Part shown: piece by piece, positions 7,837 through 25,426 of the stretch | How positions within the stretch are numbered: the stretch's first letter is position 1 | Layout: every line of letters begins with the position of its first letter | DNA from: an uncultured Fibrobacteraceae bacterium | GTDB taxonomy: Bacteria > Krumholzibacteriota > Krumholzibacteriia > LZORAL124-64-63 | DNA: 33,479 nt | Direction: 5' to 3' | NCBI GenBank assembly: GCA_964547085.1 | Contig: CAZJMO010000002.1 | Span: 345-33,823 of the forward strand | Program-made: the position numbers and the translations under genes | Notes under the pieces: generated by a model | Database searches by the model: none | What the model saw: the letters and a program-made list of their open reading frames with translations, nothing else | What the model was told of the DNA's origin: nothing

Positions 7837-9204
7837 TTGCAAACCGTGCTGGTGGTGGACGACGAGATCGCGATCCGCGAAACGCTCGCCCAGATTCTCG
7901 GTTACGAGGATTATCGTGTGCTGACGGCGGCGTCGGGTCCGGAAGCCCTCGACCTGCTCGAAGAGCAGTCGGCCGACCTCGTTCTGCTGGATGTCAAGAT
8001 GCCCGGTATGGACGGCTTCGAGGTCCTGTCACGACTTCAGGAGCGACTTCCGGACCTGCCGGCCATCGTCATCTCCGGCCACGGCGACATCCAAACCGCC
8101 GTGCAGGCGGTCAAGCAGGGGGCGTACGACTTTCTCGAGAAGCCACTCGATCGGTCCCGTCTGCTGGTCACGATCCAGAATTGCCTGCGCCATCGCAGTA
8201 CCCTCGCCGACCGCGAGCGTCTGGCCGCGAAAGCCGGCAGGAGTACGCCCCTCATCGGTGGCTGTCCGGCGATGTGCGACGTGCGTGCTTTCATCGAGAA
8301 GGTGGCGCCTACCGAGTCGACGGTGCTGGTGACGGGGGAGAACGGGACCGGCAAGGAACTGGTGGTCGGTGCGCTCCACGCCGGCAGTCTGCGCCGGGAC
8401 GGACCGCTGGTCGAGGTCAACTGCGCCGCCATTCCCGGCGAACTGGTGGAGAGCGAACTGTTCGGTCACGAGAAGGGGGCGTTCACGGGTGCCGAACGGC
8501 TGCGGATCGGTAAGTTCGAACAGGCCAACGGCGGGACCCTCTTTCTCGACGAGATCGGCGACATGGGCGAGCAGGCCCAAGCCAAGGTGCTGCGCGCGGT
8601 CGAGGAGGGAACGATCCAGCGTGTCGGCGGCAGCGAGACGATGACCGTCGATGTCCGGATCGTGGCCGCCACCAATCACGATCTTTCCGACCCCGCCTCG
8701 GGCTTCCGCCGCGACCTGTTTTTCCGGCTCAATGTGCTGTCCATCCACATGCCGCCGCTCCGCGATCGTCCGGGAGATGTCGAATTGTTGCTCGATTTCC
8801 TCATGGACCAGCTTGCCGGCGCCATGAAGACCGAGCCGAAGACCTTTGCGCCGGAGACGCTGGGCCTGTTGAGGGAATACTCCTGGCCGGGCAATGTCCG
8901 CGAACTCCGCAACCTGGTCGAGCGTCTGTTGATCCTCGCGCCGGGGCCGATTGTCCGCCCGATCGACCTGCCGGTTCTTCCCGGAGCCGCGTCGGCGGCG
9001 CCCGAGGTTCCCGATCTTTTCCGCTGTGCCGATTTCCAGGAATTCAAATCCCGCGCGGAAGCCTTGTTCCTGCAACAAAAACTCCGGGAGCACCGTTACA
9101 ATGTGAGTCGAACGGCTGAGATCCTGGGTATGCAGCGCAGCAACCTCTACAAGAAGATCACCAAGTATGGGCTCCGGACCCAAGTCGAGGACGAACCGTC
9201 ATGA
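7837..9204 (+). CDS. Sigma-54-dependent response regulator (NtrC/AtoC family: receiver + AAA+ + Fis-type HTH)
   Basis: The TTG start is preceded by GAGGAGG. The receiver has LVLLDVKMPGMDG. The protein has Walker A GENGTGKE, a canonical GAFTGA loop (GHEKGAFTGAE), and the C-terminal HTH NVSRTAEILGMQRSNLYKKI. Confidence 0.9.
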   Translation: MQTVLVVDDEIAIRETLAQILGYEDYRVLTAASGPEALDLLEEQSADLVLLDVKMPGMDGFEVLSRLQERLPDLPAIVISGHGDIQTAVQAVKQGAYDFLEKPLDRSRLLVTIQNCLRHRSTLADRERLAAKAGRSTPLIGGCPAMCDVRAFIEKVAPTESTVLVTGENGTGKELVVGALHAGSLRRDGPLVEVNCAAIPGELVESELFGHEKGAFTGAERLRIGKFEQANGGTLFLDEIGDMGEQAQAKVLRAVEEGTIQRVGGSETMTVDVRIVAATNHDLSDPASGFRRDLFFRLNVLSIHMPPLRDRPGDVELLLDFLMDQLAGAMKTEPKTFAPETLGLLREYSWPGNVRELRNLVERLLILAPGPIVRPIDLPVLPGAASAAPEVPDLFRCADFQEFKSRAEALFLQQKLREHRYNVSRTAEILGMQRSNLYKKITKYGLRTQVEDEPS

Positions 9205-9231
9205 AATCTCAAAATATCGATGGTCGCCAAG

Positions 9232-9260
9232 TTGACGTACGGCGGCTGAATCCGTATTGT
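9232..9260 (+). promoter_or_regulatory. Candidate sigma-70-type promoter (TTGACG-17 nt-TATTGT)
   Basis: The -35 TTGACG is at 9232-9237 and the -10 TATTGT at 9255-9260, with a 17-nt spacer. It lies ~100 nt upstream of the small ORF. Confidence 0.35.
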
Positions 9261-9356
9261 CTTGTCTAGAAGATTATTCGGTCGGGCTAAGGATAGCCCA
9301 TCCATCACCTGCGGCCGGGGGAGGCATCGGCCGTGGATACTTCCGAGGAGGAAGGC

Positions 9357-9611
9357 ATGAAGCGTTTTCTCGCCGTCCTCGCGCTGGCGAGCGTTCTAAT
9401 GCTTTTGCCGCTCGCGGCGATGGCCATGGACCCAACGGCGGACGCAGAGTTCGTCGACCATTCGGAAACTGAGGGAATCGCTCTTGATGGCGGCGGCCTT
9501 TTGATAGGCAAGATACCATGGGTGACCCGGACGAACTTGGCGGTGGTTTCCGCAACCAGGTTCTTCCTCCGACGGCCACCGGCGTGGTGCCATACGGCCC
9601 CATGCCAGTGA
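9357..9611 (+). CDS. Small hypothetical secreted protein (84 aa)
   Basis: A strong RBS GAGGAGGAAGG precedes the ATG at 9357. The signal peptide is MKRFLAVLALASVLMLLPLAAMA. I recognise no family, and the weaker GC3 bias leaves coding status uncertain. Confidence 0.4.
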   Translation: MKRFLAVLALASVLMLLPLAAMAMDPTADAEFVDHSETEGIALDGGGLLIGKIPWVTRTNLAVVSATRFFLRRPPAWCHTAPCQ

Positions 9612-9652
9612 TCGATCCATTGTTCCTGCTGCTGATCCAACTCATCTAAGCC

Positions 9653-9677
9653 GGTCGGCGGCCCGAGACCGCCGACC
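9653..9677 (+). terminator. Stem-loop after the small ORF (possible terminator)
   Basis: A perfect 9-bp stem GGTCGGCGG / CCGCCGACC has a 7-nt loop. Only a weak T-tract (TGTTTG) lies downstream. Confidence 0.35.
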
Positions 9678-9727
9678 AGCGACGTGTTTGATCTGCGATC
9701 CACCAACTCGCCAGGGGATGCAGATGA

Positions 9728-12700
9728 ATGGCTGATTTCGAAGGGTTTGACAGGGCGCCCCGTGGCCCCGACAGCATCCAGGGTTCCGACCTGGTCCAGG
9801 AGCTTGAGCGCCTGGAAGCGGTCGGCGATCTTCATTTCCATGCTGCGGCCTACACGACTGCCCTGGACTACTACGATCGCATCTTACCGGAGGAAGCACT
9901 GGCCCTCCTGGCGCCGGCGCATGCGTTGCAGGTGTTGCGCCACGCGCTGACCGCGTGTCTGCATCTCGGTTGGGCCGACCGTGCCGACCAGATGTTCGGT
10001 CGTGCCCGGACCTTCCTGGAGCACGCCGGCGATCTGGATTCCGAGGTCCGCGACTGCGAGCGTGCGCGATTCCAGGTTCGCCTCGCTGCTCTGCGCATGT
10101 TGCGCGGCGACTACCTGGCGGCCCTCGAGACGGCCAAACGGGCCTTCACTTTCCTGGCGCTGACCGACCAGCATGTCGAGGTCGCCAACCTCCAGCTCAC
10201 CATGGGAGCCTGCCACCAGCGTCTGGGACGCCTGGACAAGGCCGAGGAATTCTATCTGGACAGCCTCAGCACCTACCGCCGGGTCGAGGACGAGGCCGGC
10301 GTCGCGACGCTCTACAACGCGCTCGCCATGCTGCACAAGGCAGGCTGCCGCTGGGACAAGGCGCTGTCGCTGCTCGACAAGGCGATCGACCTCGCCGAGC
10401 GGAACGGCGCGCCGCAGCTCCTGTCCTGGTTCCATCTGAACCAGGGCATCATCATGACCAAGGTCAGCCGGTTCGCCGAGGCCCGCCTCGCGCTGGAACG
10501 GAGCCTGCGCCTCTGCAAGAGTCTCGGCGACCGTATTCGTGAACCGAAGGTTTTGCTCGCTCTGGGGCGCCTGGACATGCTGACCGGGCGGCTGGCCCGG
10601 GCCGAGGAGAACATCCTTGCCAGCCAGGTGCTGACCGCGCGGGAGCGCATGAAGCGTGAGGCCGTGATCGCCGACGAGTATCTCGGAGATGTGATGCTCG
10701 CGCGCGGTGACTGGGAAACGGCGCTGGCCAGCTACGAGATGGGACTGGAGCAGACGCGGTCGATCGGTCGGCCCAGCGATGTGGAGGGCGAGTTGCTGAG
10801 ACGTCGGGCGGAGGCCCGGCGAAGGGCCGGCGATCTTTCGGAGGCCGTGGCCGACGCGCACGCCGCCGTCGCGGTCTGCGAAACGTGCAGTGAGGACTAC
10901 GAACTGGGCTTCTGCCACCTGACGCTGGGCGAGGCCTACGCCGCCAGCGAGGACTGGTCACAGGCAGATCACCACTTCCGCGAGGCCGTGGACAAATTCC
11001 AGTCCCAGAACCTCCTTCGTGAGTGGTGCGACGCGGTCTGCACGTTCATGGAAGTGCGTCTGGCGTCGGCCGACAAGCCGATGCTCCTGCTGCTGCGGCG
11101 GCTTTTGCTCGACGTCCAGGACCATGCGGCGGCCAGCGTGAGCGACGAGTCTCTCGCATCTTGCCTGTCGGGGCTGGCCAGGGTGCAGCTTCGTCTCGGG
11201 CTTTGCGACGACGCGCTGCTGACCGTGTTCGAACTCGAACGCGTCGCCCGTGGACTCGAGGACGACGCGCGGTTGCGGGATGTGGCTGGATTACGCCATC
11301 TCGTCGACGCGGGGCTCGTTGGTAGCCTGGACCTGGCGGAATCGCCGGTCCGCGCCATCACCGGGATTCCCGGCCTTTTCCGCTCCAACGACGCCAGTCT
11401 GACCCGCCATCTGGACGCGGTGCTGATGGCGACCTGTGAGCGTGCCCACGCCAACTGCGGGTTCATCGCGCTCGGGGATCCGGCGACGGCCGATCCGGTG
11501 GACATCGCCGCGCGCCAGGACGTGAGCGAGAACCTCGCGGATCAGCTTGTGCAGTGGTATGCCGGCCGCGCCGAAGATCGCTTGGCGCCGCTGTTCTACA
11601 GCCGACTCGGCGAACAAGCCCCGCTTTTCGACCAGGTTCCGGCGCTTCGGGGTCGGGCTGATGGTTGTCTCTTCATGCCGCTGACTGTGCATTCGCGTCG
11701 ACTCGGCGTGTTGTTCCTCGGGATCTCCAGCGACGATTCCGCGGGATCCGTGGTCGACCAGTCCACACTGGACTTCCTGGCCAACTATCTGGGATTCCTG
11801 TCCTTGTTCCTGGCCGAGAAAGCACCGGGCGCGTCGCGGGCGCTGGATGTCATGCCGGACAATGAGGGCTTCGGCAACATCATCACCTGCAACGAGGGCA
11901 TGCTCGAGATGCTTGCGCTCGTACGCAAGGTCGCCAGTAGCGATCTGACCGTGCTGCTCCGCGGCGAAACAGGCACCGGCAAGGGCATGATCGCCTATGC
12001 CCTGCACCGCCTCAGCCCGCGTGCCGAAGGGCGTTTCCAGTCGATCAACTGCGCCGCGATCCCTGAAACACTGCTCGAGAGCGAACTCTTCGGTCACGTC
12101 AAGGGCTCTTTCACCGGCGCCGACAGCGACAAGAAGGGGCTGCTGCTCGAGGCCGAGGGCGGCACGGTCTTCCTCGACGAGATCGGGAAGATGCCGCTCG
12201 CGATGCAGGGCAAGCTCCTGCACTTCCTGGATACCCGTGTGGTGCGCCCGGTCGGCTCGGCGCAGGAACGTCATGTGGATGTGCGGATCGTCTGCGCCAG
12301 CAAGGCGGACCTGAACAGCCTCGTACAGGGCGACCGCTTCCTGGAGGATCTCTACTTCCGCCTCCTCGATTTCCCGCTCGTCGTGCCGCCTCTGCGGGAC
12401 CGCGCCGACGATATCCCGTTGCTGGCCCACCATTTCCTGCAGAAGTACGGTGACGAGTTGGGTGGCCACGTCCCCGAACTGGAGTCGGATGTGCTGGACG
12501 CGCTCGTCCAATACGATTGGCCGGGCAATATCCGGGAACTCGAAAAGTGCTTGAAACGGGGCCTCGTGCTCGCGCAAGGCGAGGACCGGCTGCGCCCCGA
12601 ACACCTACCGCGGGAACTGACCCCCTACTTGGCGGCCAGCGATCGCCGGGGTGTCACGCCGTTGCGCGAGACTCTGGCGGCCGTCGAGTCCCGCGAGATC

Positions 12701-12808
12701 ACGCAGGCGCTCAAGGTCTGCCGGGGCAACAAATCCGCCGCGGGCCGGATGCTGCAGATCAGTTATCCGAGTTTGCTCAAGAAGATCAAGCTCTACGGGC
12801 TGACCTGA
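9728..12808 (+). CDS. Large sigma-54 enhancer-binding protein: N-terminal TPR repeats + GAF-like domain + AAA+ + Fis-type HTH
   Basis: The first ~450 aa are TPR-like repeats (e.g. [32 protein letters not shown]). The GAF-like block is CGFIALGD...[19 protein letters not shown]. The AAA+ module has Walker A GETGTGKG and the loop variant GSFTGA ([11 protein letters not shown]). The C-terminal HTH is [20 protein letters not shown]. Confidence 0.85.
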
Positions 12809-12835
12809 TCGACGTAAGGAACGCGGATCGAGTAG

Positions 12836-12864
12836 GACCGGGCAATGATGTCCGGTCTTTTCTT
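12836..12864 (+). terminator. Intrinsic terminator of the TPR-GAF EBP gene
   Basis: The stem is GACCGG (12836-12841) / CCGGTC (12852-12857). It is followed directly by TTTTCTT. Confidence 0.55.
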
Positions 12865-13162
12865 GTCGTCCCGAAGGTTGCATGAGGTGTCGCGCTCTCT
12901 TGGAAGCCGAATTCGGTGGGCCAACAATGTTCCGGGCACGACTGAAGGTACGAACAATCAGGTGATATTGCGGCGATCGGCCAATGATCGTGGAAAATGT
13001 ATTTACACCGCAATCAATTGCAAAACAAGCTGTTAGGCGGGTTCCTGGAAAACTATAAAGATAGTTTACAGAACGTCGTTCCGCGTCGGTTTGAGGCCTG
13101 GCCGAGGATTTGTAACGCGTTGTGCACCAACGAGTTATTTTCACCTCGGGCTGCGCCGATAT

Positions 13163-13178
13163 CGGCACGGATGATGCA
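13163..13178 (+). promoter_or_regulatory. Candidate sigma-54 (-24/-12) promoter P1
   Basis: cGGCACGgatgaTGCA has GG at 13164-13165 and GC at 13176-13177, which is the canonical 12-nt offset. It fits the TGGCACG-N4-TTGCW consensus apart from two T positions. Confidence 0.45.
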
Positions 13179-13189
13179 GTATGAGCCCA

Positions 13190-13501
13190 TGAAGCGGTGA
13201 GTTGCAGGGAACGAACCCTTCATGTTTGAAATGGTCGTGGCTTGGGGGTACGGAACTGACCCTTGGGCTGACCGGCAAAAACCGAGGGAGTCTTCCACGG
13301 ATAGGCTCGTGGCGGTTCCGGTTAAAGAGGTGGGGTCTTTACCGGACACCGGATGCGAGAGAGGGAAGACGGCGGTTTCGGCCTCCAGTCGCGATCGAAA
13401 TCTCCTGAAGCACGTTTGGTGCGAGAGAGTCCCTCTGGTCTTGAATTGGCGAGATTCAAGCCCAGGATGCCAACTCGGTGGCGGGGCTCTCTCACTTTTT
13501 T
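13190..13501 (+). ncRNA. Candidate ~310-nt structured non-coding RNA (P1 to the T-run); family not recognised
   Basis: It lies in a lower-GC spacer with no convincing ORF or RBS. It is bounded by the P1 -24/-12 element and by a multi-helix 3' domain plus T6. Hairpins seen by eye include CCACG/CGTGG (about 13305-13322) and CTGGTCTTGAAT/ATTCAAGCCCAG (13435-13465). The 5' end is inferred only. Confidence 0.3.
13423..13501 (+). terminator. Compound helix plus T-run (putative 3' end or terminator)
   Basis: An 11-bp closing helix GAGAGAGTCCC (13423-13433) / GGGGCTCTCTC (13483-13493) contains one G-U. It encloses a 12-bp hairpin (one mismatch) and a 4-bp hairpin. AC and TTTTTT (13496-13501) follow. 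Confidence 0.4.
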
Positions 13502-13565
13502 ATGCCGTCGTAACAGACTCGGAGTATGTTTTCCCAGCCCGTTGACGAAGCGTCAGTCGTAGGTG

Positions 13566-13575
13566 ATTCCCGAAA
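13566..13575 (+). promoter_or_regulatory. Repeat motif copy 1: ATTCCCGAAA (candidate regulator site or UAS)
   Basis: The exact 9-mer TTCCCGAAA lies ~185 bp upstream of the P2 -24 element. Confidence 0.4.
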
Positions 13576-13635
13576 CACATTCTCCTAGGCACAACAGTCT
13601 CCAAACGGGGACGGTGTCCTCCTACTCACACAGGT

Positions 13636-13645
13636 ATTCCCGAAA
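13636..13645 (+). promoter_or_regulatory. Repeat motif copy 2: ATTCCCGAAA (candidate regulator site or UAS)
   Basis: The exact 9-mer TTCCCGAAA lies 70 bp downstream of copy 1 and ~115 bp upstream of P2. Both copies share the AGGT(G)ATTCCCGAAA context. Confidence 0.4.
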
Positions 13646-13751
13646 TCGACCCGTCATTATGCGGCGTTCCTGCCGTGTAGGACACGCCCGAGCGCTCGTT
13701 GATACAGCATGTTACGCCATTTTCTGGTTTCCCTGGTCGGCCCGTGTGTGT

Positions 13752-13767
13752 TGGCACGATGCGTGCG
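13752..13767 (+). promoter_or_regulatory. Candidate sigma-54 (-24/-12) promoter P2 for the lipoprotein operon
   Basis: TGGCACGatgcgTGCg has GG at 13753-13754 and GC at 13765-13766, a 12-nt offset. It lies ~45 nt upstream of the ATG at 13812. Confidence 0.55.
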
Positions 13768-13811
13768 ATGAACGGCATACGTAGGACGAACCCGGGTGGG
13801 AAGGAGCGACG

Positions 13812-14801
13812 ATGAAGGCGAAGACGCGACACGAAACGGTGACAGGGGTGGTGATCGGCTTGCTGACACTCCTTCTGCTGCTTCTGGCCACTGGATGCGA
13901 CGAGGAAGAAGATTGCGTCACGTGTGTCGAGGCTCCGCCGGTGGCTCCGACCCAGGTCTACTCCGTGAGTGGGGACGGTCGGATCACGGTTTTCTGGAAC
14001 GACTACCCCGAAATCTACGGCGACGATGTCCGTGGCTACCGGATCTGGAGCCGGTATTTCGTGGATGGCGACCAGAACGATCCCGCCCGGGAGTTCTACC
14101 TCATGGACGAGGTGGCCGTCGGCCAGAATTACGATGCCGACACGGGGCAGTACTACTACATCGACACCGATGTCGAGAACGCCGTGGACTATGAATATGC
14201 CGTCAGCGCGTTCTCCGATCATGGCGACAGCTATCTGAGCTTCGAGTTCGTGGTGGACACGCCGCTGCCCATGAGCGAGACCCCGCTCACACTTTTCGAT
14301 GTCGCTGGCCCTGCCGCCCAACTCTCCGGTTTCGATTTCAGCGTTGCCAGCGAGCACGGGGGCGGGAGCGGCAACGGATCCGAAGGCATCGTGGATCCGC
14401 GGGCCGTGGGCACCACGGCGGATATCCAGATCCGTTTCGACGAGAACGGCGTGCCGTGGCTCGAGACGCTCCGCGGCGAAGTCCACGTGCAGGACTCCGG
14501 GACCTTCCTCGACGCCGACGGCGGACTGTACTTCGAGGGCGTCTCGTGGGCGCCGGAGTTCGGCTGGTCGTCGAGCGGCGTCCTGGAAATGATCCGCGGA
14601 CACATCTACGTCGTCGAGATCTACGACGAACTCGTGGACGACGACATCCACTACGCCAAGTTGGGCGTCACGAACATCGACGCGTCCGCCGGTACGGTCA
14701 GGATCATGTGGGCGTATCAACTCGTCAACGGTCTGCCCGAACTGTCGCCTCCCGAGGCGCGCGGAGGCGACAACGACGATATCCAGGCCATCCGGCTCTA
14801 G
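13812..14801 (+). CDS. Hypothetical lipoprotein with FN3-like domain
   Basis: The RBS GGGAAGGAG lies upstream. The signal peptide has a lipobox-like LLLLATG|C. An FN3-like segment (VYSVSGDGRITVFWNDYP...GYRIWSRY...YYYIDTDVENAVDYEYAVSAF) is followed by an unassigned beta-rich domain. Confidence 0.7.
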   Translation: MKAKTRHETVTGVVIGLLTLLLLLLATGCDEEEDCVTCVEAPPVAPTQVYSVSGDGRITVFWNDYPEIYGDDVRGYRIWSRYFVDGDQNDPAREFYLMDEVAVGQNYDADTGQYYYIDTDVENAVDYEYAVSAFSDHGDSYLSFEFVVDTPLPMSETPLTLFDVAGPAAQLSGFDFSVASEHGGGSGNGSEGIVDPRAVGTTADIQIRFDENGVPWLETLRGEVHVQDSGTFLDADGGLYFEGVSWAPEFGWSSSGVLEMIRGHIYVVEIYDELVDDDIHYAKLGVTNIDASAGTVRIMWAYQLVNGLPELSPPEARGGDNDDIQAIRL

Positions 14802-14839
14802 CGGCGGCCTGAAGTTACCCGATCACGAGGAGGAAGGCC

Positions 14840-16531
14840 ATGGACACCATCAACAGGCGCACGAGGACCGCTCCGGTGTTTGCGTCCGTCCTGGCTGTGT
14901 GGGCCTTTCTGACCCTGGTTTCCGGTGCCATGGCTCAGGTGCCGGCGGAAACTCAGCCGAACGCAGTCGACCATTACCGGGATCAGAGCCTGCGCGTGAG
15001 CCTCTGGCTCAACAAGGACGCCGACCAGATCTTCAAGCGCGGCGAGCAGTTGCAGGTGACGTTCCAAACCAACGAGGACGCCTACGCCGTTCTCTACCGC
15101 ATCGACGTGGAGGGCCGGGTCGATATCCTCTGGCCGACGAGCCGATACAGCGACGGGTTCGTCTTCGGCGGGCACCAGTACCGCCTGCCGTCGACAGAAG
15201 GGCCGAAGCTCCGGATCGGCGACGGCGAGGGCATGGGTTACGTCCAGGCCGTTGTGTCGCGTTATCCCTTCGACCTGCGCGATCTCGAGGTCGACTTCCA
15301 TCACGAGAATGATCAGGGCGAGTTCGGGTTCTACGTCGCGGGGGATCCGTTCCTGGCGATGAACGAGGTCAACTACGCGGTGACCGGTCTCGAGGACGCC
15401 AGCGAGATGGTGGTGACCAACTACGTCAACTACTACGTGCATCGGAAGGTCGATCACCCGCGGTTCCTCTGTTACCAGTGCCACGACGACGCCGACGGTT
15501 ACCAGCCCTACAGCGACACCTGCACCGTGGAGATCCATTACGACCACGGCTGGCAGAACGACTGGTGGGTCAGCTACGGCTTCTACCCGGCCTACTACTA
15601 CCCGACGTACTACTACATCGATCCCTGGACGCGCGCGCGCTGGGTGAACTACTGGTACGACCCCTGGTACAGTTGGCCGTCCGTCTACTCGCACAGGTGG
15701 GATTACCAGTGCTACGACTGGCACCATTCGCCCCACTGGCGTCAAGACAGCTACACCGCCTACAAGCACGGGAATCGTCGTTACCGTCCGCTGGACAAGG
15801 ACTCGCTGATTCGTTCGCGGACCGTGCTCACGACGCGCTCCAAGAATGTCCTGGTCACCGGTAAGAGTCCCGGGGACGAGCGGATCCGCCGGATGAAGGA
15901 CCGCGAGGTGACCAGCCGGACCGACGACCGGACGCGGGACGGCAGCACCACCGCCCTGGACAGGACCAGGATTCCGGCCGGCGGCACCGCCCTGCGCAAC
16001 GTCTCGCCGGTGACGCGTTCGCAGACCCGCTTCGAGCAGAACAACCGGATCCGCACCTCGCCCGGTCTGCGCGTGCCGGGTTCGGGCGAGACCGACGGCG
16101 GGGTGTCTCGGACATCGCAGTCACGATTGCGGACCGGGACCGTTCGCAGCGGATCCTCCGGCACGACCACGCGGACCGAAAGCCGACGATCGGCGGACAG
16201 TCGCGAGACCATCAAGCCGGTGGAGTCCCGACGTGATCAAGGACGCGTCTGGACCAACCGGCGCAGTTCCAGTTCGGCGAACACGAGGCAGTCGACATCG
16301 CCGACGAGGACGGTAAAGCCGGTTTCCCGCAATTCGCGGTCGTCCGGCAGCAGTTCCGGAGAGTCGTCGGGAGGCACCTCGGTGCAGCGCCCGACCAAGA
16401 CGCCGCAACAGATCAAGCAGACGACGCCCGCTCGGTCGGGCAGCAGCACGAGCAGCAAGAGCGGTGAGAGCGGCAAGAGCAGCGGGACCTCGAGCAGTCG
16501 AGGCACCAAGAGCTCGGGAGGTCGTCGCTAG
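14840..16531 (+). CDS. Secreted DUF4384-domain protein with Trp/Tyr-rich block and long Arg/Ser/Thr-rich tail
   Basis: The RBS is GAGGAGGAAGG and the signal peptide is ...FLTLVSGAMAQ. The DUF4384-like core is LRVSLWLNKDADQIFKRGEQLQVTFQTNEDAYAVLYRIDVEGRVDILWP. The frame keeps high GC3 through the low-complexity tail. Confidence 0.7.
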   Translation: MDTINRRTRTAPVFASVLAVWAFLTLVSGAMAQVPAETQPNAVDHYRDQSLRVSLWLNKDADQIFKRGEQLQVTFQTNEDAYAVLYRIDVEGRVDILWPTSRYSDGFVFGGHQYRLPSTEGPKLRIGDGEGMGYVQAVVSRYPFDLRDLEVDFHHENDQGEFGFYVAGDPFLAMNEVNYAVTGLEDASEMVVTNYVNYYVHRKVDHPRFLCYQCHDDADGYQPYSDTCTVEIHYDHGWQNDWWVSYGFYPAYYYPTYYYIDPWTRARWVNYWYDPWYSWPSVYSHRWDYQCYDWHHSPHWRQDSYTAYKHGNRRYRPLDKDSLIRSRTVLTTRSKNVLVTGKSPGDERIRRMKDREVTSRTDDRTRDGSTTALDRTRIPAGGTALRNVSPVTRSQTRFEQNNRIRTSPGLRVPGSGETDGGVSRTSQSRLRTGTVRSGSSGTTTRTESRRSADSRETIKPVESRRDQGRVWTNRRSSSSANTRQSTSPTRTVKPVSRNSRSSGSSSGESSGGTSVQRPTKTPQQIKQTTPARSGSSTSSKSGESGKSSGTSSSRGTKSSGGRR

Positions 16532-16662
16532 GACATCGATGTGTGTTGGAGGCTTTTCCCCCCATCTTCCTGGTCGGAAGGGACGTTCCGGATCCTCGCG
16601 AAGGTTGGCACCAGAGGACGGGTGAAGGAAGGGAACAGAAGGCCGGGGGCCCTCAACACGAC

Positions 16663-16727
16663 GGAAGGGTCTCGGACAAATATTGTTGTCGATCAGGGGT
16701 GGCAATAACAGCGTCCGGGACCCTTCC
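16663..16727 (+). repeat. Long inverted repeat or stem-loop in the DUF4384 / M6-like intergenic region
   Basis: GGAAGGGTCTCGGAC (16663-16677) pairs with GTCCGGGACCCTTCC (16713-16727) at 15 positions, one being T/G. The ~35-nt loop contains a further 5-bp helix TATTG/CAATA. Confidence 0.6.
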
Positions 16728-16733
16728 CGAAAT
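16724..16733 (+). promoter_or_regulatory. Repeat motif copy 3: TTCCCGAAAT
   Basis: The exact 9-mer TTCCCGAAA overlaps the 3' arm of the inverted repeat. It lies ~26 bp upstream of the candidate -35 at 16759. Confidence 0.4.
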
Positions 16734-16758
16734 CACCGGCCGGCGACGGGGTCACAAA

Positions 16759-16787
16759 TTGACCCCGGACCTGGCCGCAGCTATGAT
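16759..16787 (+). promoter_or_regulatory. Candidate sigma-70-type promoter (TTGACC-17 nt-TATGAT) for the M6-like gene
   Basis: The -35 is at 16759-16764 and the -10 at 16782-16787, with a 17-nt spacer. It lies ~50 nt upstream of the ATG at 16836. Confidence 0.4.
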
Positions 16788-16835
16788 ACGCGGCGTTCGC
16801 GTCCACTCTCTCGTCCTATCCGGAAGGTCGCAAGA

Positions 16836-19800
16836 ATGAAGACATGGTCGGCGTGCCTCTGGACTTGCCTCTTGCTCGCCTGGACCTTGCCTGCCACGGC
16901 GATCGTTCCAGCCGCGGGATGGGATCCCTGGTCCCAGGCTCTCGACAAGGCTGCTGATCCGGTCGCCCTGTCCGACATCATGGCTCGGTTGCAGGTCCAG
17001 GCCCGACCCCTGCTGACGGACTGCTCGCGTGCGGTGCAACGGGCCCGCATCGACGGCCTGAAGGCGCCCGGATCCCTGGCGGCCGTCGCGATTCTGGTCG
17101 ATTTCGCCGACACATGCTTCTACGGCCGCGAGGACGAGTTCACGGGGCCGCTGCCCACGTCCGGCCAGAGCGACTTCTACTACGCGGCGCACGACGCCCT
17201 CTACTACGACCACCTCCTGCACGACGTCGGTGATTTCTTCGACGCCGCCAGCGCGGGGCGTTTCGACCTGGATTACGCCGTGCACCCGACGATCCTCGGA
17301 CTCGACGAGGGCATGGCGCATTACGGCAACCATCCCGAGAACGGTGAGCAGTCCGTGCTGCTGGCCGCCGACGCGATCGCCCGGCTGGACGCTGAGATCG
17401 ACTTCTCGCTCTATGACACCGTGCTGCTGATCCACGCCGGAGCCGGCGAGGAAACCGATGTCCTCGACGACTCGCCCGAGCAGATCTACAGCACGTACCT
17501 CGGGCCGGAGGACTTCGTCACCGCGATGGAGGATTCGATCCTCGACCAGCCGTACATCCCGACCGACGACTTCCCTGTCGGCGAGGGCGTACGGCACGTG
17601 CTGATCCTGCCGGAGATCCAGTTCCAGGACGCCTTCCCGGGCTTCAGCGGGAAATACGGTTCGCTCGGCACGTACTGCTTCGAGGTCGGGCTGCGGTTGG
17701 GGATGCTGTCGCTCACGGACTTCACGCCGTCCGGATCGCCGGACAGCCAGGGGATCGGACAGTTCGGGCTCATGGGCTACGGTCTGTTCACGGCCGGCGG
17801 ATTCATTCCGCCCCAGCCGTGCGCCTTCAACAAGCTGCTCATGGGGTGGCTCGACCCGCAGCCGGTGGACCCGGCGTCGGCAGCGACGTGGACACTGCAT
17901 CCGTCCGAGTTCCCCGACCACCCCGAGGCGGCCGCCCGCGTGGACCTCACCGGCTCCGAGTACTTCCTGCTCGAGTACCGGCTGCAGGATCCCGACGGCA
18001 ACGTCATCTTCAGCTTCGACGGCGATCTCAACGGGAACAATACGCCAGATTTCTACGACACCAGCAACGCCGAGAACGGCGGCCGACCGGCCGGTTTCTT
18101 CGACCCCGCCGAGGACATCCGCGAGTGGCTCACCGGAGCCGAGTGGGACTTCTTCGTCAGTGACAACGATGCGCGCGAGGACGGCGTCAAGGGGGCCGGC
18201 AGCGGGCTCTACGTCTGGCACATCGACGAGGGCGTGATCCGAGACGCCTTCGCCCAGGAACGCAACGTCTTCAACGCCGATCCGTCCCGGAAGTCGGTGG
18301 ACCTGGAGGAGGCCGACGGCATTCAGGATCTCGACACCCGCGAGCCGTCGCTGTTCTGGCTCGGTGGCGACGACGACAGTTTCCGCGCCGAGGACAACGC
18401 CGTCTTCGGACCGGACACGCGGCCGGACACACGCACCAACGGCGGCGTCCGCACCGGACTGGTGCTCGACGAGATCAGCGCCGTGGTGGTGGACTCGGTC
18501 CATGTCTTCGACGCCGGGACGCCGGACGAGCGCACCGGGATCCGCTACGCCGAGACCATGACGTTTCGTTGCCGCCGCGACACGGACCCGTTCGGCGTGG
18601 CCATCCGGACGGCGTCACGCGATCTGTCCGGCGTGGATCTGACCGGCAGCCATCTGTTGGCGGCCCCGCTGGCCGGCGGCGCCCAGAGCGAGCAGGTGAT
18701 CGTGGCCGCGGCCGATTCGGGGCGCGTCTACGCCCTCGATTTCGACCTGCTGGAGTGGGTCGACCACGACGGCGACCCCGCGACCGTGGAACCGTTGACC
18801 GTCGGCACCGATGACGCCGGCGCGCCTGTGACGTGGTTCCTGCCGGGCTGCGCAGGACCGGTGGGCACGGACGATGCGGGCCTCGAGATCGTGCTGAGCT
18901 CGCCGTCGGGCGTCTACGCCTTCGACCAGATCGGGGCGCCGCTCGCCGAGGGGCCGGGCGGCACGGCGCGCGGCCGCATCGCCGACGTGACGGCCGTATC
19001 GGCGCCGATTCTGTTGCCGTGGGGCAGCGGCGAGGCGGATCTGGATCCCGCGGTCATCTGCGTCGGCACAGTGAACACCGAAGTGGTCGGAGCCCCGACC
19101 ATGCTGCGATTCCTCGACGCGACCGGCGCCGAGGTCCATCCCGCCGTGAGCCTGGGTGGTGCGATCCAGGGCACGCCCGTCCGCCTGGACCGGATGCTCT
19201 ACGTGCCGGTCATCGCGCCGAACGCCACGGGTGCCCTGGCGGCCGTCACCTGTTTGCAGGTGGGCGACCCCGCGCTGGCATGGTCGGTGCCGCTCGATCT
19301 GTTGCCGGCCGACGTGCCGCCGCTGGTCACCGCGAACGCCGTGGTTGTCCGGGATGTCGACGGCAGGGCGCAGACCGTTTCGATCACGGGTGTGGATCCG
19401 GTCGTGGAACCGCTCTGGCCGGCGGACATCGTGGTCGGGACCGCCATGGGGCCGGGAGGGACATTCATCGGGAACGGCCGGTTCGGGCGCAGTGGCCCCG
19501 AGGCGGCCTGGCTGCTGGGCTGGCCGCGTCGCCCGTTGCCGGCGATCCAGGTCGGACAGGCGCAACCGCTCGCGCTGGGGTTGGATACGGCGCCGACTGG
19601 TTTCCTCTTCGCGAGCCGCGACGGTCGCCTGTTCCTGTGCGGGGCGGACGGTGCGGTGCGCCCCGGCTGGCCCATCGCCGGGCCCGCCGATGCGATGGCG
19701 ACTCCGGTGCTGGTCGAGCCGTGGGATTCGGTCGAGGGGCTGGCGACGCTCATGCTCGCGGCGGCCGGCACCACCCCGGTCGTCACCGGTGTCGACGCCG

Positions 19801-20231
19801 ATGCGGAGGCGTTGCAGACGCGCGCGGTGGCTCACCTCCAGGTGTTCCAGATCGGCGTTCCGTCGGAGTATTCGTTGGCCAGGGGCGCGTCCATGTACGG
19901 TGGCGGTCCTTGGCGGGGGGCGGTCGGCATATACGACGGGACCGCGCCGGCGGACGACGTGTCGCTGGAAGACACCCACGTCTGCTATCCTCAGCCGCTG
20001 ACCGACGCGGAACTGCACGTGCGCGGACGGGCGCCGGAGACGGGGGGCGCCAGAGTCGTGGTCGTCAATCTCCAGGGCGAGGTCGTGCGGGATTCCGGGA
20101 CGCTCGCTGTCGACGGCGGCGCGGTGTTCGAGTTCGTCATCGATATGCGGGATGTCGCGTCCGGTGTTTATCTCTGCAAGCTGCAGGCCGGAGGTCGGAC
20201 GAGCGTGCAGACGATCGCCGTGGCGCACTAG
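16836..20231 (+). CDS. M6 (immune inhibitor A)-like domain protein lacking HExxH, with repeat region and T9SS C-terminal sorting domain
   Basis: The start is set at the internal Met with signal peptide MKTWSACLWTCLLLAWTLPATA and RBS GGAAGG. M6-like blocks are VLLIHAGAGEE, GIGQFGLMGYG, AFNKLLMGWL, LYVWHIDEG and VDLEEADG. The zinc site reads FEVGL instead of HExxH. The C-terminus (CYPQPL...VVVVNLQGEVV...ASGVYLCKLQAGGRTSVQTIAV) resembles a T9SS type A / FlgD-Ig-like sorting domain. Confidence 0.8.
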   Translation: MKTWSACLWTCLLLAWTLPATAIVPAAGWDPWSQALDKAADPVALSDIMARLQVQARPLLTDCSRAVQRARIDGLKAPGSLAAVAILVDFADTCFYGREDEFTGPLPTSGQSDFYYAAHDALYYDHLLHDVGDFFDAASAGRFDLDYAVHPTILGLDEGMAHYGNHPENGEQSVLLAADAIARLDAEIDFSLYDTVLLIHAGAGEETDVLDDSPEQIYSTYLGPEDFVTAMEDSILDQPYIPTDDFPVGEGVRHVLILPEIQFQDAFPGFSGKYGSLGTYCFEVGLRLGMLSLTDFTPSGSPDSQGIGQFGLMGYGLFTAGGFIPPQPCAFNKLLMGWLDPQPVDPASAATWTLHPSEFPDHPEAAARVDLTGSEYFLLEYRLQDPDGNVIFSFDGDLNGNNTPDFYDTSNAENGGRPAGFFDPAEDIREWLTGAEWDFFVSDNDAREDGVKGAGSGLYVWHIDEGVIRDAFAQERNVFNADPSRKSVDLEEADGIQDLDTREPSLFWLGGDDDSFRAEDNAVFGPDTRPDTRTNGGVRTGLVLDEISAVVVDSVHVFDAGTPDERTGIRYAETMTFRCRRDTDPFGVAIRTASRDLSGVDLTGSHLLAAPLAGGAQSEQVIVAAADSGRVYALDFDLLEWVDHDGDPATVEPLTVGTDDAGAPVTWFLPGCAGPVGTDDAGLEIVLSSPSGVYAFDQIGAPLAEGPGGTARGRIADVTAVSAPILLPWGSGEADLDPAVICVGTVNTEVVGAPTMLRFLDATGAEVHPAVSLGGAIQGTPVRLDRMLYVPVIAPNATGALAAVTCLQVGDPALAWSVPLDLLPADVPPLVTANAVVVRDVDGRAQTVSITGVDPVVEPLWPADIVVGTAMGPGGTFIGNGRFGRSGPEAAWLLGWPRRPLPAIQVGQAQPLALGLDTAPTGFLFASRDGRLFLCGADGAVRPGWPIAGPADAMATPVLVEPWDSVEGLATLMLAAAGTTPVVTGVDADAEALQTRAVAHLQVFQIGVPSEYSLARGASMYGGGPWRGAVGIYDGTAPADDVSLEDTHVCYPQPLTDAELHVRGRAPETGGARVVVVNLQGEVVRDSGTLAVDGGAVFEFVIDMRDVASGVYLCKLQAGGRTSVQTIAVAH

Positions 20232-20348
20232 GGTCCGGAACCGGGAGCCGTGCCGCTTGCCGACACGGCGCTCAGGAGCTAGAGTCAGGGACCGATAAGG
20301 GACGTTGCCGGGGACAGTCCGCGGTGACCGTGAGAGGAAAGGCTACCC

Positions 20349-21287
20349 ATGCGGAACAAGACCATCATCACGGGCGTCGCGCTGCTCGGCCTGCTCGCCC
20401 TGATCCTGCCCACCGCCGCTGCTGCCGGCGGCAGTCCCGGCGACGCCGGGTTGCTCTTCCTCCGCCTCGGCATGGGCGCCCGGGAAGCCGCGATGGGCGG
20501 CACCGGAGTGGCGTCCGCCGAAGGCGCTGCGGCGGCGTACTGGAACCCGTCGCGCCTGGCCTTCACGCCTCCGGGCACCGAAGTCCTGGTCCAGCAGCAA
20601 TCGTGGCTCGGCACGTTCGACTACACCGCCGCTGCGCTGGCCCACCACGGGGATTTCGGCGTCATCGGCCTGACCGTCGCGGGTTTCTTCTCCGAGGAGA
20701 TCGAGCGTTACGGCAGCGATGCGGTCGGCGTCTCCGAGGGCACGTTCTCGCCGTACGACCTGGCGTTCGGCGTGAGCTACTCGCGTGCCTTCGGCGAGGA
20801 GTTCGCCATCGGTGCGCAGGCCAAGCTCGTCTACGAGAAGATCGACATCTACAGCGGTTCGGTGGCGTTGTTCGACATCTTCGCCTCCTGGCGCCTGAAG
20901 CACCTGCCGGGAATCAGCCTGGGCGTCAGCGCGACCAACTTCGGCGGCCAGATGACCGTCAACGAGGAACCGTTCGACGCGCCGCAGACCGTCACCGTAG
21001 GCGGTGCCTGGACCATGCAGAACGGTCCGCTGGCCGACCGCGTCACCCTGGCGGCGGATGTCGGGTTCTACAACGACGCGAACGAGAAGGCGCATCTCGG
21101 CGGCGAATTCAAACTGGTGCCGGAACTGGCGCTGCGGCTGGGCTACAAGGTGAACTACGAGAAACAGGGTTTGACCGCGGGCGCGGGTTTCCGGCACGAG
21201 AACTTCGGGATCGGTTATGCCTATGAGGACATCACTGACGACGCCTTCGATCCCGGGCATCGGTTCTCGCTGGAGTTCTTCTTCTAG
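20349..21287 (+). CDS. PorV/PorQ-family outer-membrane beta-barrel protein
   Basis: It has a signal peptide. The N-terminal motif LLFLRLGMGAREAAMGGTGVASAEGAAAAYWNPSRLA is typical of PorV/PorQ-like proteins. Amphipathic beta strands alternate, and the C-terminus is aromatic (...LEFFF). Confidence 0.7.
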   Translation: MRNKTIITGVALLGLLALILPTAAAAGGSPGDAGLLFLRLGMGAREAAMGGTGVASAEGAAAAYWNPSRLAFTPPGTEVLVQQQSWLGTFDYTAAALAHHGDFGVIGLTVAGFFSEEIERYGSDAVGVSEGTFSPYDLAFGVSYSRAFGEEFAIGAQAKLVYEKIDIYSGSVALFDIFASWRLKHLPGISLGVSATNFGGQMTVNEEPFDAPQTVTVGGAWTMQNGPLADRVTLAADVGFYNDANEKAHLGGEFKLVPELALRLGYKVNYEKQGLTAGAGFRHENFGIGYAYEDITDDAFDPGHRFSLEFFF

Positions 21288-22108
21288 TCGGCCGCGACGA
21301 TCCTGGGTCGATCATCGGGCGGTTCGGAGCAATCCGGACCGCTCGTTTCGTCGTCGGGCAACGCGATCACCGGCAGCAGGGATCCGTCGCGCCAGACGCC
21401 GTAGTGGAGCGGATCGAGCCAGCCGCCGAGCGTGGTCAACCGCCGTCCGGCGTCCGTCGCCGTGAACGCGTGGTGGACGTGGCCCATGATCAGATGGTCC
21501 CAGGGCGGATCCTGCTGACGGGAGAGCCAGCGCTGTGCCTTGCTCTCGATGCCGGCGATTTCGTCGCGACGGCTCTCGCGGCTCGAACCGCTGAGCCACG
21601 AGCTGAGCGCGAACAGCAACTCCGGGTGCAGCGACTTGCCGAACATGACCCCGGCGGGATGACGCACGATCGACCGGAAGGTTCGATAAAGGAGATCCCG
21701 CGCCAGCAGACCGTCCCCGTGGACGCAGAAGACCCGCAAGCCATCCAGTTCGAGGGTCACCGGTCCGCCGCCGGAAGCCGTGCCGTAGCGCTCGTGGAAG
21801 TACCGCGCGGCCCAGATGTCGTGATTGCCACCGATGAAATGCAGCTGCGATCCCGACGCCCGGACGCGGTCCAGGACATCCAGGAGCGGCTCGTATCCCT
21901 TCATGACGAAGTGCGGGTAATCGAACCAGAAATCGACGATGTCGCCGAGAAGAACCACATGCGGCACGCCGGCGTATCGGTCGAGAAGCGACACGAATCG
22001 CGAGAGGCGCGACTCCTCGGCCGGGGAGCGGTGCACATGGAAGTGGCTGTCGGTCACGAAGAGGGCGCGGGCGCCTGCGTCATTGTGGTTGCTATTCATG
22101 GTGCCCAA
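21284..22108 (-). CDS. lpxH: UDP-2,3-diacylglucosamine diphosphatase-like metallophosphoesterase
   Basis: Calcineurin-like motifs appear in LpxH order: FVTDSHFH, VVLLGDIVDFW, FIGGNHD, VHGD, IMGHVHH. The length is ~270 aa. Confidence 0.65.
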   Translation of the reverse strand: MGTMNSNHNDAGARALFVTDSHFHVHRSPAEESRLSRFVSLLDRYAGVPHVVLLGDIVDFWFDYPHFVMKGYEPLLDVLDRVRASGSQLHFIGGNHDIWAARYFHERYGTASGGGPVTLELDGLRVFCVHGDGLLARDLLYRTFRSIVRHPAGVMFGKSLHPELLFALSSWLSGSSRESRRDEIAGIESKAQRWLSRQQDPPWDHLIMGHVHHAFTATDAGRRLTTLGGWLDPLHYGVWRDGSLLPVIALPDDETSGPDCSEPPDDRPRIVAAD

Positions 22109-22170
22109 TTTGTAATTTAGGGGCCTGCTGAGGGCAACCCGTTTCCTGATTACGCGGAAGGAAAAACGGC

Positions 22171-22695
22171 ATGTCGATCATGGACCAGGTGAAGCAGAAC
22201 TTGCGTGAGTGGTACTCACTGGCTGCGGACCGGACCGGCGAGATGGCCAAGATCAGCGTCAGGATGTACGACAAGTACGGGATCAGCCGCGAGATCGAGC
22301 GACAGCTCTCAGAACTTGGCAGCTATGTCTATCACGCCGTGGAGCAGGGGCGGACGGACTTCGGCGGCGATCAGGAGTTCCAGGCATGGATCGACCGAAT
22401 CCACGAACTGGACCGGGATCTGGCGGAGAAGGTCGAGGAGATCGAGAAGATCCGTCAGATGCGGCAGCAGAAGCAGGCGGCCCGCGATCAACAGGATCCG
22501 GCCGCGGCCGACACCGCCGACGACCCCGACGACGCTGAGCTTCTCGAGACCCGTGAGGTCGACCAGACCCCGGCCGGAGAGCCCATCGAGACGCCGGCGG
22601 ACGACGTGGATCCGGGACCGTCCTCCGAGGCGCCGGAGGTGCAACCCGCCGAGGATCCCGAGAATGAGGATGAGAACAGCCGAACTGGACATTAA
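22171..22695 (+). CDS. Hypothetical protein: coiled-coil N-terminal half, strongly acidic Pro/Asp/Glu-rich C-terminal half
   Basis: It has good GC3 bias and an upstream RBS (GGAAGGAAAAACGGCATG). I recognise no family. Confidence 0.55.
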   Translation: MSIMDQVKQNLREWYSLAADRTGEMAKISVRMYDKYGISREIERQLSELGSYVYHAVEQGRTDFGGDQEFQAWIDRIHELDRDLAEKVEEIEKIRQMRQQKQAARDQQDPAAADTADDPDDAELLETREVDQTPAGEPIETPADDVDPGPSSEAPEVQPAEDPENEDENSRTGH

Positions 22696-22713
22696 TTTGT
22701 TCTTTAAACGTTG

Positions 22714-22742
22714 TTGACAGTCTTCTCGTACACGGCTATGCT
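22714..22742 (+). promoter_or_regulatory. Candidate sigma-70-type promoter (TTGACA-17 nt-TATGCT) upstream of htrA
   Basis: The -35 TTGACA (22714-22719) matches consensus and the -10 is TATGCT (22737-22742), with a 17-nt spacer. An AT-rich stretch lies upstream. Confidence 0.5.
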
Positions 22743-22825
22743 GTTTTTGTCCCTGCCGAGGCGACCGTCCCTGCCGCCTCACCCCTGTCGGATTTGTCCC
22801 CCACATAATACCGGGATCGGTGTGT

Positions 22826-24274: not shown

Positions 24275-24326
24275 TGTCATCACCGTGACGGGCCGACCAG
24301 GCCCCACGTAGCCGGGAGAGAAACAC

Positions 24327-25193: not shown

Positions 25194-25205
25194 GCTTGCG
25201 CGGTG

Positions 25206-25240
25206 TCGGGCCGTGTCTCGATTGGTGCGAGACGGCCCGA
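25206..25240 (+). terminator. Stem-loop after the sigma-factor gene (possible terminator)
   Basis: TCGGGCCGT(GT)CTCG pairs with CGAGACGGCCCGA (13 bp with a 2-nt bulge) around a 7-nt loop. No T-run follows immediately. Confidence 0.35.
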
Positions 25241-25426
25241 TGGTGGCCTCCCTGGCGTATTTCTTGCTTATGACGTATCGTTCCCGTCTCGTTGCGGTGG
25301 TTTGCACGCCGCCACACGTGCGCAGTTGACACGGGGAATCCGAGCCGCCATGCTGGGATTGCCCGTATGGACAATGATGAGCGCCAGCATCGTGCGCCGC
25401 GTAACAGAGGTCACGGCAAGGTCGGC

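Follow-up and report, generated by a model that had tools for sequence, protein, structure and literature searches.

A 33,479-nt chromosomal stretch of an uncultured bacterium (contig CAZJMO010000002.1, placed by GTDB in Krumholzibacteriota; 67% G+C; hereafter the window) carries, downstream of two genes for sigma-54 activators (enhancer-binding proteins, EBP1 and EBP2), four co-oriented genes that we call g1–g4: a lipoprotein, a secreted DUF4384 protein, a large M6-like protein with a putative C-terminal sorting domain (CTD) of the T9SS (type IX secretion system), and a predicted outer-membrane barrel of the PorV/PorQ family. Our favored reading, to which we assign a probability of roughly 0.55, divides this locus into three units, such that g3 would be a surface scaffold with g4 as its cognate barrel, and g1–g2 together with a conserved structured non-coding RNA (RNA1) would constitute a sigma-54 regulon. 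A previous sequence-only reading of the window had reported the four co-oriented genes and assigned their families; all of these open reading frames (ORFs) are present on the + strand with the coordinates given, and the assignments (FN3-like lipoprotein, DUF4384, M6-like CTD protein, PorV/PorQ-family barrel) all hold. For comparison, a scan of one genome per species recovered g3 relatives in 435 genomes, and the best 80 of these, Krumholzibacteriota-type metagenome-assembled genomes (MAGs), supplied the related loci, which were read ±10 kb around the g3 homolog. Full-length homologs of g3 at 42–61% identity are plentiful in metagenomes, the named ones being Candidatus Krumholzibacteriia or Candidatus Krumholzibacteriota.

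A two-gene pair in three phyla

In all Krumholzibacteriota loci of sufficient length, down to 33% identity, the M6-like CTD protein adjoins a PorV/PorQ-family barrel, and the same two families are neighbors in two further phyla, with flanking genes that differ in all three and with both gene orders represented. Second-tier relatives of g3 (~1020–1100 aa, comprising M6, FG-GAP and CTD regions) belong to Cloacimonadota, and on three long contigs of that phylum (L085–L087) the M6-like gene is followed directly by a 305–317-aa barrel that scores 88–116 bits against the PorV/PorQ-family profile NF033709 and can be aligned with g4 over its whole length (E 4e-15). A third partner comes next on these contigs, a 1380–1400-aa S8 peptidase that carries FG-GAP repeats as well as a CTD, and EF-P lies 5′ of the pair in L085 and L086. 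The order is reversed in Balneolaceae (L088–L089), where a bona fide PorV (294–305 bits against an equivalog cut-off of 250) ends 12–16 nt 5′ of the M6-like gene (M6i), and a 1076–1115-aa Tricorn/TolB-like propeller protein and a DUF5683 protein then follow; g4 shares full-length homology with these barrels too. None of the Cloacimonadota or Balneolaceae pair loci (L085–L089) contains relatives of g1, g2 or the activators. Together, the loci provide good comparative evidence that the conserved core is the two-gene g3–g4 pair, in either order, and that a functional link probably connects the CTD protein to the barrel. Because the pair is adjacent in unrelated contexts of three phyla, the idea of a cargo encoded beside its partner barrel, already raised from the sequence, gains support.

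The g3 product matches curated M6-like models below their cut-offs. Against NF052323 ("T9SS-dependent M6-like inactivated metalloprotease") it scores 171 bits over model positions 38–535 of 1043, where the cut-off is 600, and against the M6 domain model TIGR03296 it reaches 54.9 bits for a cut-off of 110.8, so that it falls outside both that equivalog and Peptidase M6. The nine plus two second-tier relatives likewise all stay under the NF052323 cut-off; true members (P0257, P0258 and P0261; 973–1294 bits) appear among the weaker matches only and are Balneolaceae, the cultured Rhodohalobacter included. No HExxH motif is present in g3. In an alignment of ~100 superfamily representatives gathered by exhaustive search, the clade's YCFEVGLRLGMLSLxD lines up with HEFGHxLGLPDLYD of relatives with an intact site, so that FEVGL, invariant in 21 clade members, takes the place of HExxH; of the site's residues the Glu alone survives, both His ligands and the downstream Asp having been substituted. 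Judged by this alignment, the M6-like domain is catalytically dead, its zinc site having been lost, as the sequence-only reading had held. Several independent degenerate motifs (FEVGL, HQFGH, TLMFGF, TAQIGRH and others) occur across the superfamily, other members of which keep HEFGH, a pattern that indicates that a secreted protease with propeller and CTD was repeatedly turned non-catalytic.

An alignment-based AlphaFold (AF2) model of g3, with a predicted local distance difference test (pLDDT) score of 71, contains a confident beta-propeller at residues ~540–1010 and a likewise confident C-terminal beta-sandwich at 1049–1129. In Foldseek the propeller most closely resembles BamB, YxaL and PQQ-type propellers, with no PorZ or PorU chain among the top 50 matches, and a phmmer search of g3 against PDB sequences returned nothing. 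When the last 95 residues were compared as a profile by hhalign, they matched Cloacimonadota and Balneolaceae CTDs that pass TIGR04183 with probabilities of 97.0% and 97.6%; because of this profile–profile match to bona fide CTDs, we accept the g3 C-terminus as a divergent, putatively type A-like CTD.

The g4 product is a member of the PorV/PorQ family (162 bits against NF033709, cut-off 90, over profile positions 3–324 of 326), as are 31/31 of its orthologs, and begins with a hydrophobic signal-like segment that includes an AAAAG region. It lies below the cut-off of each equivalog model, with 85.8 bits for PorQ (NF033711, cut-off 220), the best among them, 69.2 bits for PorV (NF033710, cut-off 250, only the N-terminal half being aligned) and 49.8 bits for PorV2 (NF052325, cut-off 325), the last of which was not found as a gene name in the literature searched. 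All 31 orthologs also fall outside the three equivalogs, and the earlier description of g4 as a "PorV paralogue" is thus unproven. Among the models named in the sequence-only reading, PF14326 and the PorV/PorQ family are exceeded at cut-off, whereas TIGR03296 and TIGR04183 are not reached by g3.

Promoters and structured RNAs

The two activator genes are separated from g1 by a gap of 1003 nt (12809–13811; 56% G+C) whose length is kept in all loci and which opens with a terminator-like hairpin and T-run 3′ of EBP2 (12834–12859). Two sigma-54-type promoters, P1 and P2, lie within it (Table 1). P2 is the sole -24/-12 match with one mismatch in the window, where two-mismatch matches are about as numerous as expected by chance; across 65/65 distinct orthologous loci, however, the pattern TGGCAYG-N5-TGC never varies although the bases around it drift, a phylogenetic footprint that bears out the -24/-12 element previously reported. 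P1 has a fixed position 200–300 nt past the EBP2 stop, and its GG and TGC are shared without exception by the aligned copies (61/61). Both promoters were accepted on the GG at -24, the GC at -12, exact spacing, and conservation among orthologs.

The setting is likewise that of sigma-54 control, with two adjacent EBP genes bearing GAFTGA-type loops (GAFTGA at residue 214 of EBP1, GSFTGA at residue 793 of EBP2) and a palindrome confined to the regulatory gap, where it is one of several AT-rich boxes. When up to three mismatches were allowed, 28/28 matches in the related loci fell inside EBP2–g1 gaps (65 kb) and 0 in the other 1.29 Mb. The consensus arrangement across loci comprises two copies 5′ of P1 and one 5′ of P2; in the window, in addition to the perfect copy, there is a degenerate one at 13011–13035 and, 5′ of P2, a half-site only (near 13705–13714). 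The palindrome is a candidate binding site for one or both adjacent activators. The EBP genes, both of which do encode sigma-54 activators, are not placed "directly" upstream of g1 as earlier described: the intervening gap has a sigma-54 promoter and an RNA of its own. EBP1 occupies the same position in all related loci that are long enough, and the small ORF between the activators has no Pfam match.

Downstream of P1 lies RNA1, which had been passed over together with the g2–g3 gap and its sigma-70-type promoter, and which nhmmer detects in 62/65 distinct gaps. Its minimum free energy is -141.6 kcal/mol (z = -5.06 relative to shuffles), and RNAalifold finds compensatory changes in 22/24 pairs. 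Projection of the window fold onto 59 copies leaves 68.7% of cells paired, compared to ≤50% when partners are slid, and the covariation score of 0.271 (≤0.177 in that comparison) is reached in 0/500 shuffles. The frequent G–U pairs fit the + strand, and the loop motifs GAGGUGGGGUC (GGUGGGG) and GGCGAGA are invariant. A de novo helix finder applied to the MAFFT alignment was discarded as its output was swamped by G-rich/U-rich column pairs. No Rfam family matches anywhere in the window at gathering thresholds, RNA1 and the element in the g2–g3 gap included; at E ≤ 10 the EBP2–g1 gap yields only a chance-level Ysr224 hit (17 bits versus 70), and ARAGORN finds nothing in that gap. We rejected a reading of RNA1 as a 107-aa ORF (13222–13545), since from one copy to the next the longest open frame is found on different strands and in different frames, and it has no conserved start. 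About 250 poorly conserved bases separate the RNA1 terminator from P2. RNA1 is a candidate for a new riboregulator class.

The gap between g2 and g3 (304 nt in the window, 245–500 nt across 71 loci, as opposed to 38 nt between g1 and g2) is occupied by a second conserved element, block 2, and by a sigma-70-type promoter 47 nt 5′ of the g3 start. Nowhere in the aligned gaps is conservation higher than in the -35 and -10 hexamers of this promoter (consensus ATTGACC...CCTATAATGC; 71 loci); the strict pattern is present in 46/71 loci and near-variants in the eight others inspected, relative to a background of 0.02 per kb, and its position fixes the g3 start at the ATG at 16836, the start that the sequence-only reading had assumed. 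By comparison, a -24/-12 element occurs in 0/71 of these gaps. Block 2 was recovered by nhmmer in every gap (Table 1) and contains the invariant motifs TTCCCCCCATC, AAGGTTGGCA and GTCGATCAGGGGTG. A long stem of lineage-variable sequence encloses GATCAGGGG, with a median of 31 enclosing pairs versus 15 with shuffled flanks; this count was used in place of an earlier control (≥7 enclosing pairs) that was uninformative, 53/65 shuffles having passed it. RNAalifold returned invariant pairs only for block 2 and hence no covariation proof. Block 2 was rejected as an intrinsic terminator, given a T-run after the stem in just 1/65 copies; it could be a structured 3′ untranslated region (UTR) or an RNA derived from one. 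Its motif CCCCAUC appears, by sequence, complementary to the invariant RNA1 loop GGUGGGG.

The data fit a locus of three predicted transcription units, with RNA1 transcribed from P1, g1–g2 from P2, and g3–g4 from the housekeeping-type promoter. A four-gene sigma-54 module, as first envisaged, is therefore supported in part only: P2 precedes g1–g2, and g3–g4 has a conserved sigma-70-type promoter of its own.

Table 1 Coordinates of the features of the locus within the window
Feature	Position	Strand	Details
EBP1, NtrC-type response-regulator sigma-54 activator (receiver, AAA+, HTH_8)	7837..9204	+	Pfam Response_reg E 2e-33, Sigma54_activat E 9e-63, HTH_8
Small conserved ORF between EBP1 and EBP2	9333..9611	+	92 aa in window; 99-113 aa called in L001-L004
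EBP2, TPR + GAF-like + AAA+ sigma-54 activator	9728..12808	+	Pfam TPR_12 E 7e-32, Sigma54_activat E 3e-62, HTH_8, weak GAF_2
Candidate activator-binding palindrome TAACgcGTTG-N5-CAACgaGTTA	13113..13137	.	~26 nt 5′ of P1; perfect match, 0 expected by chance
P1, sigma-54-type -24/-12 promoter of RNA1, CGGCACGgatgaTGC	13163..13177	+	YGGYAYG-N5-TGC
RNA1, ~315-nt conserved structured non-coding RNA	13189..13501	+	Y-shaped terminator domain and T-run at end
P2, sigma-54-type -24/-12 promoter, TGGCACGatgcgTGC (TGGCACgatgcGTGC)	13752..13766	+	45 nt 5′ of g1 start
g1, lipoprotein, FN3-like N-terminal domain	13812..14801	+	329 aa; lipobox LATGC
g2, secreted DUF4384 protein	14840..16531	+	563 aa; PF14326 48.2 bits vs cut-off 27
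Block 2, conserved structured non-coding element	16540..16735	+	directly 3′ of g2 stop; nhmmer 71/71 gaps
Sigma-70-type promoter TTGACC-N17-TATGAT 5′ of g3	16759..16787	+	sole sigma-70-like match in 12800-22200
g3, M6-like pseudo-protease with 8-blade-type beta-propeller and divergent, putative T9SS type A-like CTD	16836..20231	+	1131 aa; signal peptide
g4, PorV/PorQ-family predicted outer-membrane barrel	20349..21287	+	312 aa; 117 nt 3′ of g3

The products of the predicted P2 unit are both exported proteins. The signal peptide of g1 (...LLLLLATG-C29) qualifies it as a lipoprotein, with Cys29 invariant and Gly28 nearly so among 34 orthologs. No Pfam or NCBIfam match was found for g1, its C-terminal domain included; a profile of its orthologs gave weak FN3-like matches to PDB entries over residues ~33–155 (3mpc, E 0.0017; 1wj3, E 0.01), and a single-sequence AlphaFold model (pLDDT 35) was unusable. 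In g2, DUF4384 spans residues 65–142 (profile positions 2–80 of 81), which places the protein in that family. A 90-aa segment at residues 231–320 (window 15530–15800) with 20% Tyr and 12% Trp (YYPTYYYIDPWTRARWVNYWYDPWYSWP...) lies between this domain and a basic, disordered tail of 243 aa that is rich in Ser (20%), Arg (16%), Thr (14%) and Gly and contains 50 Lys + Arg versus 19 Asp + Glu.

Gene order and competing explanations

All Krumholzibacteriota loci of sufficient length show the same gene order, namely EBP1, the small ORF, EBP2, a gap of ~0.9–1.0 kb, g1, g2, g3, g4, an LpxH-like gene on the opposite strand, a small ORF, HtrA, a sigma-70 factor and M23, and it persists down to 33% g3 identity. 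Housekeeping genes flank the locus at either end (RlmN-like, AMP-ligase, HtrA, a sigma-70-family factor, M23 peptidase, YbbR, HisRS and AspRS) and are equally fixed in the phylum; within-phylum synteny therefore cannot show that g1–g4 form a unit. The neighborhood conservation that the sequence-only reading had named as a check is real within the phylum, although it extends to these housekeeping flanks, and outside Krumholzibacteriota g1 and g2 are absent beside the pair.

As a side observation, a ~20-kb block (window 7837–26326; L001–L084) is collinear phylum-wide and comprises the activators, g1–g4, the LpxH-like phosphoesterase, HtrA, a 288-aa sigma-70-family factor, the M23 peptidase and YbbR, with an AmiC-type amidase inside it in some loci only; this block may represent a supercluster for envelope biogenesis. 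About 25 nt 5′ of the M23 peptidase gene, at 25253–25267, is a -24/-12-like element, TGGCGTatttcTTGC. It was rejected as a conserved promoter, being kept in closer relatives only (11/48 loci), and is at most a subclade feature. The complete Krumholzibacteriota-type block was also seen in MAGs titled "uncultured Fibrobacteraceae", "Gemmatimonadales", "Latescibacterota" and "Fibrobacter sp." (L006, L009, L012, L041, L046 and others), titles that are probably wrong labels or placeholders.

In the mechanism that we favor, g3 would be exported by Sec through its signal peptide and then by the T9SS through its CTD, and g4 would be its cognate partner, binding the CTD and holding or delivering g3 at the cell surface, by analogy to PorQ with PorZ and PorV with PorU in Porphyromonas. 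Because its zinc ligands have been lost, g3 could not cleave peptides; it would most likely serve in binding or as a scaffold, by way of the beta-propeller and what is left of the protease cleft. Expressed from its own housekeeping-type promoter, the pair for that reason looks like a standing envelope component. Transcription of g1–g2 would start at P2 and that of RNA1 at P1, and since the same palindromic site lies 5′ of both, we propose that the two promoters are probably switched on together by one or both activators, one of them presumably controlled by phosphorylation and the other equipped with TPR/GAF sensor domains. The gene identities, the lost zinc site, the three conserved promoters, the folding of RNA1 and the adjacency of g3 and g4 across phyla are shown by the data, whereas the physical g3–g4 interaction, the surface location and the assignment of activators to sites are inferred, and phylum-wide collinearity is the one pointer to a functional tie between g1–g2 with RNA1 and the g3–g4 pair.

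Several findings weigh against this picture. Neither a core T9SS gene nor rpoN occurs in the window or in the flanks (±10 kb) of the 80 related loci. The g3 CTD scores just under the curated cut-offs (PF18962, 21.2 versus 27; TIGR04183, 21.9 versus 23), with TIGR04183 reaching E ≤ 0.01 in just 2/21 clade members, and the N-terminal M6-like domain was modeled at low confidence. The barrel beside the pair gene in Balneolaceae is a general PorV and not a specialized paralog, so that adjacency may mark a T9SS accessory role instead of a private shuttle. In addition, since block 2 has no T-run, transcripts from P2 may run on into g3–g4, in which case a four-gene unit would be partly valid.

The model of the sequence-only reading makes g1–g4 one sigma-54-dependent operon, inducible through the two upstream activators, for an adhesive or matrix-building structure at the surface. 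In its favor, all four genes keep one orientation and one order throughout the related loci, P2 is invariant, no canonical terminator separates g2 from g3 (a T-run follows the block 2 stem in 1/65 copies), and catalytic residues were seen in none of the four products. Such an operon is nonetheless unlikely in light of the conserved sigma-70-type promoter 47 nt 5′ of g3 in the window and 71 loci, the width of the g2–g3 gap (245–500 nt versus 38 nt for g1–g2), the failure of g1 and g2 ever to appear beside g3–g4 in Cloacimonadota or Balneolaceae, and a phylum synteny that also takes in the LpxH-like, HtrA, sigma-70 and M23 genes and so defines no four-gene unit. We give similarly low credence to a model in which g4 is the general PorV-type shuttle of the lineage and g3, instead of being ordinary cargo, is an accessory subunit of the core T9SS, with a role in the attachment complex like that of PorU or PorZ, and with an adjacency like that of porU and porV, which are neighbors in Bacteroidota. 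The Balneolaceae arrangement suggests exactly such a general PorV with g3 as accessory subunit, the barrel beside M6i passing the PorV equivalog at 305 versus 250 bits; a g3 relative is present in 435 species-representative genomes, the promoter of g3–g4 is of housekeeping type, and the CTDs of relatives weakly match the C-termini of the PorZ and PorU models. PorU and PorZ, moreover, retain their CTDs and sit on PorV and PorQ (PMC10202324). Speaking against it, a dead protease cannot be the sortase, and both g4 and the Cloacimonadota barrels are short (305–317 aa), with a PorQ score above the PorV score and both far under the cut-offs; in favor of a private partner, g4 resembles PorQ in size and scores, as the Cloacimonadota barrels do.

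If, finally, the adjacency meant nothing, g3 would be one ordinary T9SS cargo next to an unrelated barrel, kept there by slow decay of gene order. The freezing of the whole 20-kb order in the phylum, housekeeping genes included, is compatible with this idea, which we regard as highly improbable given that genes of these two families neighbor each other in three phyla with unshared flanks and in both orders. The reading of g3–g4 as scaffold and cognate barrel can, on the other side, be extended to a bolder claim, which we advance as a speculation with the odds against it: the pair would be an ancient, unrecognized two-component surface module of the T9SS, a third retained-CTD/barrel complex beside PorU–PorV and PorZ–PorQ, present in at least Krumholzibacteriota, Cloacimonadota and Balneolota, and functionally coupled in Krumholzibacteriota to a sigma-54 regulon, the first product of which would define a new class of structured regulatory RNA of ~315 nt.

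Current work reserves private PorP/SprF shuttles for type B cargo and sends all type A signals through the general shuttle PorV. Should the favored reading be true, the retention of a dedicated PorV/PorQ-family partner by a type A-like cargo in three phyla would extend the cognate-shuttle idea, and a conserved non-enzymatic T9SS surface component would be added outside Bacteroidota, where the T9SS is almost unstudied. The homologous pair in cultured Balneolaceae (Rhodohalobacter) makes the proposal genetically testable. Furthermore, the sigma-54 regulon of this locus is clean and conserved deeply across the phylum, and consists of a pair of activators, two promoters and a palindromic site that is well defined.

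Relation to known systems

The literature searched holds nothing on this module or on the T9SS in Krumholzibacteriota, in line with the earlier remark that it is not a described system; that remark needs qualification, however, as NF052323 has already been named by NCBI curators and the pairing of a cargo with its cognate barrel is well established for the T9SS, a theme on which a type A-like cargo with its own PorV/PorQ-family neighbor is a variation. The closest parallel in architecture is found in Porphyromonas gingivalis, where PorU–PorV and PorZ–PorQ consist of a protein whose CTD is kept and bound by the barrel (PMC10202324). Both there and here, a large secreted CTD protein with propeller or peptidase-like domains is combined with a PorV/PorQ-family barrel. 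Differing from those pairs, g3 combines a single propeller with an M6-like pseudo-metalloprotease, which sets it apart from the C25-type sortase and from the two-propeller PorZ; g4 scores far under the PorQ and PorV equivalog cut-offs; and the host is a member of Krumholzibacteriota instead of Bacteroidota.

A parallel in genetic organization exists in the type B CTD cargo that is genetically linked with its own PorP/SprF-like shuttle, which sets secretion and final location, whereas PorV recognizes every type A CTD (PMC12618676). As in the SprB–SprF type B pairs of Flavobacterium johnsoniae, the cargo gene here adjoins a putative outer-membrane shuttle or anchor gene of its own, but the shuttle there is of the PorP/SprF type and the CTD of type B, as opposed to a PorV/PorQ-family barrel and a type A-like CTD here. 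The Balneolaceae family NF052323 shares with g3 a degenerate M6 domain, an FG-GAP/propeller region, a type A CTD and a neighboring PorV-family gene; it differs in that only the N-terminal ~500 residues of g3 align with it (171 versus 600 bits), in its degenerate motif (for example TAQIGRH in place of FEVGL), and in a locus with reversed gene order, an equivalog-level PorV, and no sigma-54 elements, g1 or g2 nearby. With Peptidase family M6 itself (immune inhibitor A, InhA/PrtV), g3 has in common a fold family detectable by TIGR03296 and by alignment with intact-motif relatives, but it lacks the zinc site and scores 55 versus 110.8 bits.

On the regulatory side, small RNAs that depend on sigma-54 and an activator are encoded beside the activator genes in the GlrR–GlmY system of enterobacteria and the LuxO–Qrr system of Vibrio. 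RNA1 resembles GlmY and the Qrr RNAs in its predicted -24/-12 promoter, the candidate activator sites upstream of it and the adjacent gene for an NtrC-type activator. It is, by contrast, much longer (~315 nt) and multi-branched, bears no relation to them in sequence or in Rfam, and would share its activator site with a protein-coding operon immediately 3′ of it.

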